Shown here: one piece after another, positions 3,701 to 6,700 of the stretch
Position numbering within the stretch: position 1 is the stretch's first letter
Layout of the letters: every line of letters starts with the position of its first letter
Notes under the pieces: model-generated
What the model was told of the DNA's origin: nothing
The model's input: the letters and a program-made list of their open reading frames with translations, nothing else
The model's database searches: none
DNA from: a virus
Taxonomy: Duplodnaviria > Heunggongvirae > Uroviricota > Caudoviricetes
Virus record (IMG/VR): IMGVR_UViG_2534681978_000010
Strand: one strand, 5' to 3'
DNA length: 8,200 nt
Position numbers and translations under genes: made by a program

Positions 3701-6700
3701 AGACGCGACCGGACAGCCTTCATGTGTACCGCTGACACCACCGGATCACCATTTTTATCCACGGCATCAAGCAGCATCACAACCGCGTTTCTTTCTGTCG
3801 CGGAACGGTAAATTGCATCCGGATCGTGCATCAGTTCCGGTAGTCTCTCGATAACATCCATCGGCACCACATGTTTCACACCATTGGTGGCCTTACGCAC
3901 AGTATCGCGGGAAATAACCAGCGGCAAATCCGGTGCACCAAGGTGACGCAATACCGGCGGCGTACGCCCGATGTTTACCGTTAAATCCGTGGAGCGCAGA
4001 GACTTCATCATTCTGGCAAGGTCATCACGATAACGCTCGCCCTCACCTTCCGGCACTTTGAACGGATCACGCTTACCACTACGGGAGTACTGAGACGATG
4101 CGCCCGCGCCATCCTCACGCGGCGTGTAACCTTCCCGCACACGCTGGCCTAACGTACGAATAGTCTCGCGAACAAGTCTGATATCGTTCAGTTCCGTCGG
4201 CTTCAGTAACCCCGTACGACGCAGTACCCCTTTGACCAGGGCAACAACACGCTCCCATGCCGCCACGAATTTATTCGGCTGTTTCTCCGCCATATGTGCC
4301 AGAAATTCACCCGCCTGTACTTCCGGTGATTCCTTACCATAGGAAGCATCAACCTTACGCCAGGCTTCACGGATGGTGACGTTATCACTGTCGCGGGTTT
4401 TCAGCACGGTTTTGATAATCGTCTGATATTCCGCTGGTGTGACAACATGCTCCATGGCATGGTGAATGATCTCGTGACGCAGCTTCTCGCGAACGGTCCG
4501 CCCGTCAGGGATGTTATCCGCCACCAGGACAATTTCTCGTTTATCCGGACGATAGAATGCGTGCACCCTGCCGTAACCATCGAACAATTCACCCGCCAGC
4601 GCTTCAGCCTCTTTCTGTGACTTCACCACACGGACCTTCAGGTCACTGTCCTTAATGCCGCTCATCACGCCACGGGCAACCGCTTCAACCTGCGGGACCG
4701 GGCTGCCTTTGGCTTCCGCACTACGGTTAACATCCGAAATGAGATTACCTTCAGGTGTGCGGGTAACGCCCTTACGGGAATAAAACGCAACGCCCTTGTC
4801 CGTCTCACGGGTTTTCAGGGTGCGGAACAGGTGATCGAATGCCTCACGAATACCGCCATCCAGTTCCGCATTCGTCGGATAAGCCCAGGTGTTATCTGTG
4901 TTGTGCTCAGGTGCCTTACGGATATTGACCAGATAATCATTCTCCACGCCAGCCATACGCGCCTTATCCTGAACATAACGCTCAAAGGCACGTGCCGCCA
5001 TTTCAACATCCGTTGACCAGTACGGTTTTGAGCGCACCTCATCGAGAAGCACTGAACGACGCGGCATGTCACTGTTTTTAATGGCCTGAATCACACCTTT
5101 AAAAGCATCGTAAACCTCCTGACGTACCGGATATTCAGCATCAACATACCTGCCGTCTTTAAATATGCGCCTGACACGCTGTGCTTCCGTCATAAAGTCG
5201 CCACCTGACGTAATTTTCCCGTCATTGGAAACGTCATAACGACCAAAATAATTATCCAGAGAATGGAACCATTCGTGCGCCAGCGCACCCGGTCCGTTAC
5301 CTTTTGTCAGGTTGATTGCCACCTCACCCGGCTCATAGTGTGCTGCCGCCTTACCCTTACCACGGGCACCAAATGCCAGGCCAAGACGACCGTTCAGGGA
5401 AAGCGCTTTTGTCGGTACATTCAATACTTCCGCAAGGTCATGCAGCGAGTCATAAGCCCGGTTCAAATCAGCCTGACGACGCGGACCTTCCACGTAGTTA
5501 CCAAACTGCACACCACGGAAACCAAACGCATCACTGAACTGCTCCGGTGAAACATCCCCTTTACGGCGTTCTGGTCCGGTACGGTCGCGGTTGGTGGCGT
5601 TACGCTGCTCCTCACGCGAAATCTCCCGCATCTCCTTCACATGACGAACAAGCTCATCACGATGTGAATCAATGTACTTACGCGCATCACTGGCTGACTT
5701 AAAGCCACCTCTCACCCGCATTTTGTTTTTGCCATAAGCGATAAAAATATCGCCACTGCGGGTATTCCGGTAAACGTCAAAGCGGATTTTGTCATCCGGT
5801 GACGGTGCCGTTTTTTCATCTCCTTTCGCCTGTGACTTTTCCTCCAGCTCTGCAAACCAGACTTTCGCCTTTGTCAGTAATTCATCCCTGCTTTCCGAGA
5901 AAAAGAGGTTAGTCCCCTTATTGTCCTTATTGCGCAGTGAATAAAGTTTCTGTGGCGGATCGTAACGCTTCCCTCCTGCCGCCTGATACACACCCGATAC
6001 CACCCGATAAGCAGAAGCCTTGTCCATCTGTGAGGGTGGCAGAGTGCGTAACAGTTGCCAGGTATCCGCGTAACGGGAGGGCATTCTGCCTTCCATCCAT
6101 TCTGCGAGGCGTTTCGCGCTGACCGTTCCGTTAAGCATTTCCGATACACTGTGTCGTACTTTTTTTACGCTCTCCCCCCAGCCAGCCGTATTGTGTTTCG
6201 TCTTCGCCGGAATATCGCTACGATACAGCGCTATCATTGCCAGGGTGTCAGCATCAGCCCCTTCGCTCGCCAGTTTTGCGTAGTCCGGTTTCGGGAACAG
6301 TTTGCTCAGCGGCTGCGTGGCATAATCCCTGTCTTCCAGCGTTTTACCCAGTGTTTCAGCAAGCTGTGCATAACGGTGTTTGGCTGCCCCTTTAATTTCC
6401 TCGCCAAAGTCTTCAATTTTTTTGCCCCTGACTTCACCTCCGCGCACAGTAGCTTCCCTGTCAGTAGAGACAGTTGTTTCAGATTCAGGTGCGATTGTCT
6501 CAGGCTGCGGGATGTCACGATTTCCTCCGGCCTGTCGACGTACTTCTGCCTGCTGTGCGAGCTCAGGCAATGAGTTACGAACAGTTCGGGGAAGCTGATC
6601 AGGCTGAGGCATACGGACATTGTGTGTAATGTCCGGAGCCGGTAGCCCTTCACGTACCGGTGCTGTCGCGTTCTGCGCATCCGGTGACGGCAGACCACGA

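Follow-up and report, generated by a model that had tools for sequence, protein, structure and literature searches.

A predicted second zincin-like metallopeptidase module, of an HExxxH family, in the giant polyvalent protein of Shiga-toxin-converting podophages

We analysed an 8,200-nucleotide stretch of tailed-phage DNA (Caudoviricetes; IMG/VR record IMGVR_UViG_2534681978_000010), here called the window, in which one minus-strand gene encodes most of a giant polyvalent or ejection protein. This protein carries a predicted zincin-like metallopeptidase (MPTase) domain, module 2, which contains the motif HEIIH and belongs to a large family whose own motif is HExxxH. A different MPTase domain, the CLCA_X-type module 1, lies upstream of it. 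The reading that we favour, with moderate confidence, is that module 2 is a second gluzincin-type metallopeptidase, of the HExxxH family, that processes the packaged giant protein of Shiga toxin (Stx)-converting podophages. Amino acids (aa) are numbered along the window translation; adding 309 gives the position in the full protein (2793 aa) and adding 322 the position in the phage phi24B protein. Coordinates are collected in Table 1.

The HEIIH motif

The window letters GTGAATGATCTCGTG have the reverse complement CAC GAG ATC ATT CAC, which encodes HEIIH, and positions 4447-4476 together encode HEIIHHAMEH. A first-pass annotation, made from the letters of this DNA, had placed an HExxH motif at 4462-4476, and the reverse complement does read HEIIH there, at residues 1242-1246. 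Its label E1243 for the glutamate is likewise right in window numbering; the residue is E1552 in the full-length protein and E1565 in phi24B vb_24B_48.

Exactly two HExxH motifs occur in the 2484 residues, one at H975 (ALAHEWFHSLD) and one at H1242. About 0.04 would be expected per protein of this composition (37 His and 187 Glu), and in 5000 shuffles the probability of finding at least one was 0.038 and of finding at least two 0.0002. The length of the protein speaks for a chance occurrence of HEIIH, but with only 0.04 motifs expected, two or more in just 0.02% of shuffles and motif residues that are invariant across the family, chance has a negligible likelihood, and the conservation alone already refutes it.

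A domain family without a Pfam model

Module 2 is covered by no Pfam or NCBIfam model, PHROG gave no informative family for it, and a Pfam scan of the giant protein found no domain between aa 1131 and 1441. A word-indexed homologue search returned near-identical fragments only. Searching 1.84 billion cluster representatives exhaustively with phmmer, with aa 1124-1364 as the query, returned 391 representative proteins at E ≤ 1e-3, 101 at E ≤ 1e-10, and the matches consistently spanned query positions ~37-235, equivalent to window aa ~1160-1358. With 391 clusters at 50% identity, this is a large domain family that has no Pfam model.

Lengths and co-occurrence were counted for the 148 homologues within the 150 best-scoring rows of the 391. 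Ninety-two of these proteins are at least 2000 aa long, the longest having 6026 aa, and nine are shorter than 300 aa. Most copies of the domain are embedded in phage or conjugative-element polyvalent proteins of 1000-6000 aa and some stand alone; given both the long hosts and the solo copies, module 2 is an autonomous, mobile domain. Six of the solo proteins (P0113, P0080, P0123, P0124, P0125 and P0109) consist of module 2 only, measure 211-272 aa and have no Pfam annotation. The partner domains in sampled homologues were RadC; InPase; LPD39; LPD5 with LPD1 and MuF_C; and ArdC-N with MPTase-PolyVal and Toprim, the repertoire that Iyer et al. 2017 (PMC5512222) report for polyvalent proteins of phage type and of conjugative elements. 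Structural matches in BFVD were likewise phage "large polyvalent protein" entries, with E values down to 2e-7 and a template modelling (TM) score of 0.67.

Two Pfam names, DEK_C and Peptidase_M76, came up as candidate families and were dismissed, their matches being sub-threshold; Peptidase_M76 was the only recurrent one (E 0.05-0.1, in 7 of 54 members). Sequence matches in the PDB to a de novo designed protein and to an EF-hand-like protein were rejected as spurious.

Conserved residues and candidate metal ligands

Conservation was read from an alignment of 142 sequences, whose members are 22-55% identical, and a 54-sequence subset agreed with it. H1242 is kept in 140 of the 142 sequences, and E1243 and the second His, H1246, in all 142. 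The motif thus lies outside any variable loop: these three residues are 99-100% conserved and sit on a model helix with a predicted local distance difference test score (pLDDT) of ~95. An HExxH-type motif that is conserved across homologues and borne by an alpha-helix is what is seen in zincins. The earlier view that the second HExxH stands independently of the first is borne out, and its module has conserved catalytic-type residues and a zincin-like predicted fold.

Past the motif, conservation picks up again at Y1287 (94%), A1301 (93%), E1305 (93%), L1326 (95%) and G1330 (94%), and above all at E1298, which is invariant (142/142 and 54/54), lies 51 residues past H1246 and falls in a predicted helix (the "Glu helix", model residues 135-148, pLDDT ~90-95). 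The first-pass annotation had instead suggested that the His/Glu cluster directly after the motif completes the metal site. In the 142 sequences, however, H1247, E1250 and H1251 are unconserved: the family has Y, H or K at 1247, chiefly N at 1250 and, in most members, a gap at 1251. Because E1298 is invariant and the HHAMEH cluster is not conserved, E1298 is likely the better candidate for the third ligand, which would be of the gluzincin type. A metzincin reading (HExxHxxGxxH) was rejected, as H1251 is both wrongly spaced and unconserved. Position 1248 is Gly in 90% of the family and Ala in the query.

Residues 1310-1335 (4195-4272, minus strand) form a further conserved stretch, including W1315, L1326, R1327 and G1330, that might serve as a lid, as an interface or in substrate binding.

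Predicted fold

An AlphaFold2 model of module 2, built from the 54-sequence alignment, has a pLDDT of 83.1 and a predicted TM score of 0.79. Its elements, helices (H) and strands (E) in model numbering, run H11-22, E31-35, H38-45, E57-60, E65-69, H76-95, H98-113, H117-130 and H135-148. The motif lies at 85-89 on H76-95 (pLDDT ~88-95), H98-113 and H117-130 form a two-helix insert, and H135-148 bears E141, which is E1298; a low-confidence stretch and a final helix follow. As described by Iyer et al., the zincin MPTase core starts with an N-terminal helix and a three-stranded sheet, after which come the HExxH helix, a variable insert and a Glu helix (PMC5512222). The predicted layout of module 2 matches this core, with an N-terminal helix, a three-stranded sheet, an active-site helix and the later helix all in place.

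Among the fold neighbours of the model, Certhrax and lethal factor scored highest (8.2-7.7). TTHA0227 (7.4), PPEP-3 and PPEP-2 (7.0 and 6.9), AQ_1354 (1oz9) and E. coli YbeY (6.7 and 6.4), MATCAP (6.6), acel_2062 (6.5), jannalysin (6.2), Spartan (SprT domain, 5.9), ArdC (5.7) and Wss1 (5.6) followed.

Contraction of HExxxH to HExxH

The motif of the family is LRHE[IV]L[GAV]H[YHK]GL, that is, HExxxH. Of the 142 sequences, 135 read HExxxH only, two fit neither pattern and five read HE[IVL]IHH, these five being the query and four close representatives (P0015-P0018, 43-78% identical). The plain HExxH pattern is missing from most homologues, in which HExxxH stands in its place, and yet the homology of the query to HExxxH members is strong (E 1e-10 to 1e-47). 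The motif type given in the first-pass annotation, HExxH, is thus not that of the family, whose ancestral motif is HExxxH according to both the alignment and the tree.

HEIIHH can in itself be read either as HExxH or as HExxxH. Setting P0121 (HEAVGHHAMEH) against the query (HEII-HHAMEH) places a one-residue deletion and favours a derived loss; with P0025 (HEILAHHGMET) added, the alignment indicates that what disappeared in the query clade was the small residue preceding the second His. Neighbour joining with midpoint rooting recovers the HExxH sequences as a monophyletic group, nested among HExxxH sequences at a depth of six nodes and sister to P0020-P0025, which read HExxxH. This nested position and the HExxxH sister group argue that HExxH is a derived contraction; judged from alignment and tree, the Stx-phage HExxH is a one-residue deletion from an ancestral HExxxH.

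DPP III and MATCAP/TMCP show that catalysis is possible with HExxxH. An engineered DPP III, del-DPP III, in which HELLGH was turned into HExxH by deletion, stays active with Zn, Co or Ni (PMC3268031), and by analogy it is a precedent for the natural contraction in the Stx-phage module 2.

Function of module 2

For module 2 we infer metal binding, catalysis and a substrate as follows. H1242, H1246 and E1298 would hold a divalent metal, probably Zn2+, and E1243 would activate water as the putative general base. Y1287 may help to stabilise the transition state, a role for which we take Tyr728 of anthrax lethal factor to be the counterpart. As is presumed for this class of domain, module 2 and module 1, which is of another clade, would cut the ~2,800-aa protein, either while it is in the capsid or once it has been ejected, and cleavage would release or activate its LPD5, MuF-C/PBECR and LPD38 modules.

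This is in keeping with what has been proposed for such domains generally. The zincin-like MPTase is the commonest polyvalent-protein domain (Iyer et al. 2017, J Bacteriol, PMC5512222); ~36% of polyvalent proteins have one to five MPTases and ~8% of those have more than one (PMC5512222). Iyer et al. propose autoprocessing by MPTases, whether prior to packaging, inside the head or following injection, and name an effector activity as the alternative (PMC5512222).

Several results weigh against our preferred reading. No curated peptidase profile matches module 2, either as the query or in 54 members; sequence and profile searches of the PDB with module 2 found no zincin; Foldseek against the PDB gave nothing significant, MATCAP being best at E 0.039, followed by lethal factor and selecase; and the conserved stretch at aa 1310-1335 is modelled at a pLDDT below 50.

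The main rival, which we consider unlikely though well ahead of the others, is that module 2 is a trans-acting effector protease that cuts host proteins, for example of defence or of the envelope, after ejection. The same authors leave an effector role open for MPTases (PMC5512222), solo copies of 160-270 aa indicate that the domain can work without a surrounding polyprotein, and the closest solved folds include the toxin proteases lethal factor and PPEP. Most copies, however, lie mid-chain in very large multidomain proteins, which processing fits at least equally well. An effector or toxin role had also been put forward in the first-pass annotation; a conflict or effector setting is reasonable because the protein is delivered by a mobile element, but the DUF4157 link offered in support of it falls away (see the comparison below).

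Virion-borne wall-degrading enzymes are common in podophages. Module 2 could accordingly be a cell-wall peptidase that acts on the peptide stems of peptidoglycan and lets the ejection conduit cross the periplasm, as a phi24B preprint proposes for the "metallopeptidase domain" of gp47 (bioRxiv 10.64898/2026.04.10.717836). That preprint, a cryo-electron microscopy study, names a "Muf-C metallopeptidase domain" and bases its peptidoglycan-degradation idea on it (bioRxiv 10.64898/2026.04.10.717836), whereas MuF-C was defined by Iyer et al. 2017 as a PBECR domain, of barnase/EndoU-like RNase fold (PMC5512222). Because of this definition, MuF_C at aa 1441-1530 is an RNase-fold domain and not a peptidase, and the zincin modules lie elsewhere in the giant protein. 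We regard a cell-wall role for module 2 as quite improbable.

A shade less probable still is that module 2 has the zincin fold but no catalytic activity and serves as a scaffold or for binding, as the N-terminal domain of anthrax lethal factor does. At only 22-55% identity, 140-142 of the 142 sequences still have the two His, the Glu between them and E1298, and pseudoenzymes normally lose HExxH and the Glu. The deletion, moreover, restores a canonical spacing and is not a loss of the site, and del-DPP III is an example of an enzyme that withstands such a change (PMC3268031).

Returning to the processing metallopeptidase that we favour, a more specific version of it is tentative and in our estimate rather doubtful, if somewhat less so than the effector protease. 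In this version the Stx-phage module 2 would be a natural counterpart of del-DPP III that has kept the HH doublet and may have an altered metal preference or specificity, and it might form with module 1 a two-protease cascade that would split the ejection protein into effectors in the host.

Module 1 and its relation to module 2

The NCBIfam model NF041907 (CLCA_X) matches module 1 with E 6.6e-44 and 150 bits, which is under its curated cut-off of 260. CLCA_X is a zincin family, rich in phage and plasmid members, whose HExxH is followed by an Asp (Lenart et al. 2013, PMC3650047). Iyer et al. describe a "phage-type" MPTase clade in which an Asp stands three residues past HEXXH (PMC5512222), a pattern that the HEWFHSLD of module 1 fits.

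The CLCA_X model runs in one stretch (4807-5583, minus strand; aa 873-1131) over the HExxH module and over what Pfam calls LPD1 (aa 1052-1131). Because one continuous model covers both, LPD1 is probably the C-terminal part of the module 1 zincin and not a separate domain.

Two zincin motifs in one polypeptide had been called unusual in the first-pass annotation. The combination is in fact known for polyvalent proteins from Iyer et al., and in 31 of the 148 representatives module 1 also lies upstream of module 2, usually 75-240 aa away. Whether the two modules are paralogous duplicates had been left as a check. BLASTP of one against the other found no in-register similarity, and hhalign of the two families, taken from the same proteins, gave a weak match (probability 24%, E 8e-4, 79 columns) whose register is correct: AHYEP pairs with HAFYRP, EVAINL with EIVLVADNI, and the HExxH motifs with each other. 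On these grounds module 2 was rejected as a recent duplicate of module 1, and from the sequence comparisons the two are best regarded as distant members of one superfamily and not as recent paralogues.

The giant protein and its surroundings

The N-terminus of the giant protein is cut off by the window edge, its first 309 codons lying outside, and in the PHROG 616 match window residues 1-2484 take positions 310-2793. The window DNA is 96-98% identical to Stx-converting Sepvirinae podophages (Shigella phage 75/02 Stx, VT2-Sakai, the PA series and others). The orthologue of Shigella phage 75/02 Stx has 2793 aa and is annotated as "LPD5 domain-containing protein" or hypothetical. In phi24B the protein vb_24B_48 (2807 aa) is 96.8% identical and keeps both HExxH motifs, at H1297 and H1564; apparently it is the virion protein gp47, whose reported length is 2811 aa. 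Proteomics found gp47 in phi24B virions, and it has been proposed to be an ejection protein (bioRxiv 10.64898/2026.04.10.717836).

Table 1. Features of the giant protein gene in the window. Residues are in window numbering.
Feature	Position	Strand	Residues and remarks
Giant polyvalent or ejection protein gene	745..8199	-	From the open reading frame (ORF) list and translation; 2484 codons inside the window, of ~2793
LPD5 domain	5527..5976	-	aa 742-891; Pfam PF18799, E 7e-45
Module 1, CLCA_X-type zincin-like MPTase	4816..5583	-	aa 873-1128; includes the stretch that Pfam calls LPD1
HEWFH, first HExxH motif	5263..5277	-	H975-H979, then S-L-D
Module 2, zincin-like MPTase domain, HExxxH family	4126..4722	-	aa ~1160-1358
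HEIIH motif	4462..4476	-	H1242-H1246
H1247	4459..4461	-	Second His of the HH doublet; falls where the family varies between Y, H and K, just past the ligand His
Y1287	4339..4341	-	11 residues before E1298; possible transition-state stabiliser
E1298	4306..4308	-	Putative third metal ligand; QAGEFLAHMAE, family consensus QAEEVxAxxAE
E1305	4285..4287	-	Second conserved Glu on the Glu helix
MuF_C domain	3610..3879	-	aa 1441-1530; Pfam PF18819, E 1e-17
LPD38 domain	1084..1701	-	aa 2167-2372; Pfam PF18857, E 5e-46

Upstream of LPD5, aa 1-741 (5977-8199, minus strand) are a long N-terminal region without a Pfam domain. Its composition, by eye rich in E, Q, A and P, points to disorder. It is the only part that PHROGs 26030 and 20690 match, and in some phages it may be a separately annotated ORF or fragment. 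At the other end, aa 1536-2484 (745-3591, minus strand) match PHROGs 14770 and 10691, whose members are phage proteins of still greater length (3427-3925 aa). PHROG 10089, "DarB-like antirestriction", spans aa 2045-2372, and its match together with LPD38 hints at an anti-restriction role for the C-terminal end of the giant protein.

Downstream of the giant gene are small ORFs at 430-621 (minus strand) and 23-343 (plus strand), the former encoding 63 aa and having a counterpart in Shigella phage 75/02 Stx that is annotated as hypothetical. Similarity to this phage begins only at window position 301, beside a DUF551 gene, and a mosaic junction therefore lies near the window start. The phi24B GenBank record (27192-30769, minus strand) has three short antisense ORFs inside the giant gene, vb_24B_50c, 51c and 52c, which are probably over-annotation.

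What is known and what is added

Two zincin modules in one polyvalent protein and the HExxxH version of the motif are published concepts, and the finding is unsurprising and useful for annotation. In the literature and databases searched we found neither the placement of module 2 in the Stx-phage protein nor its boundaries, its candidate ligands or the contraction of HExxxH to HExxH, of which this family documents a natural interconversion. The giant protein is conserved in the most widespread Stx-converting phages, and virions of phi24B contain its orthologue. Public annotation calls it only "hypothetical" or "LPD5 domain-containing", and the sole paper that discusses it puts "metallopeptidase" on MuF-C, an RNase-fold domain according to the paper that defined it. 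Precise targets for mutagenesis can now be named, E1243, H1242, H1246 and E1298 in module 2 and E976 in module 1.

Comparison with known systems

The first-pass annotation had seen a DUF4157-like pattern in the flanks of the motif and had proposed a profile check against DUF4157 (now eCIS_core, PF13699) and SprT/Wss1. What module 2 shares with DUF4157 is a short strand-strand-helix ending in HExxH, the generic core common to zincins; a DUF4157 domain has ~79 aa, whereas module 2 has ~200 aa and a distal Glu helix. None of 54 members matched these profiles at E ≤ 1, and the DUF4157/PF13699 hidden Markov model (HMM) gave no match for the query at E ≤ 10. A DUF4157-like consensus proxy, scored by Pfam at 129 bits over positions 2-76 of 79, aligned with the module 2 family in hhalign at 6% probability over 14 columns of the motif helix. 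Neither the Pfam HMM nor the closest fold places module 2 with SprT-like or Wss1 (WLM) proteins. Membership of module 2 in DUF4157/eCIS_core or SprT/Wss1 is thus very improbable.

CLCA_X, represented by module 1, is also zincin-like and occurs in the same polypeptide, and it aligns weakly but in register through the strands and the motif helix. It differs in belonging to another clade, with HExxHxxD and a His on the preceding strand.

The M34 family (lethal factor/ATLF-like) is the top structural neighbour and has no Pfam or PDB sequence match to module 2, so that this is a resemblance and not membership. Anthrax lethal factor and ATLF-like proteins, PPEP-2 and PPEP-3 are 5-15% identical to module 2, show no sequence-profile match and have a motif spacing that differs from that of the module 2 family; in module 2 the Tyr-Glu spacing is 11.

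MATCAP/TMCP (KIAA0895L) and DPP III (M49) are experimentally active HExxxH metallopeptidases whose sizes and biology are unlike those of module 2. We detected no sequence homology of module 2 to either, and DPP III was not among the fold matches listed. Module 2 is not placed in M49, though the motif logic is alike (HExxxH ... EE; in DPP III, HELLGH and EExxAE). The resemblance is probably convergent, or holds at the level of the zincin superfamily only.

The Pfam family PF18818, MPTase-PolyVal, does not match the module 2 family. An HEXXXH clade of polyvalent-protein MPTases has been described in prose (Iyer, Burroughs, Anand, de Souza, Aravind 2017; PMC5512222), and the module 2 family, compared with it by this published description only, is most probably that clade. 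Like it, the family resides mid-chain in phage and conjugative-element polyvalent proteins, carries the motif HExxxH, and has a zincin core in which a variable insert separates the motif helix from a later helix that bears a Glu; the Stx-phage members differ in that their motif has contracted to HExxH(H).

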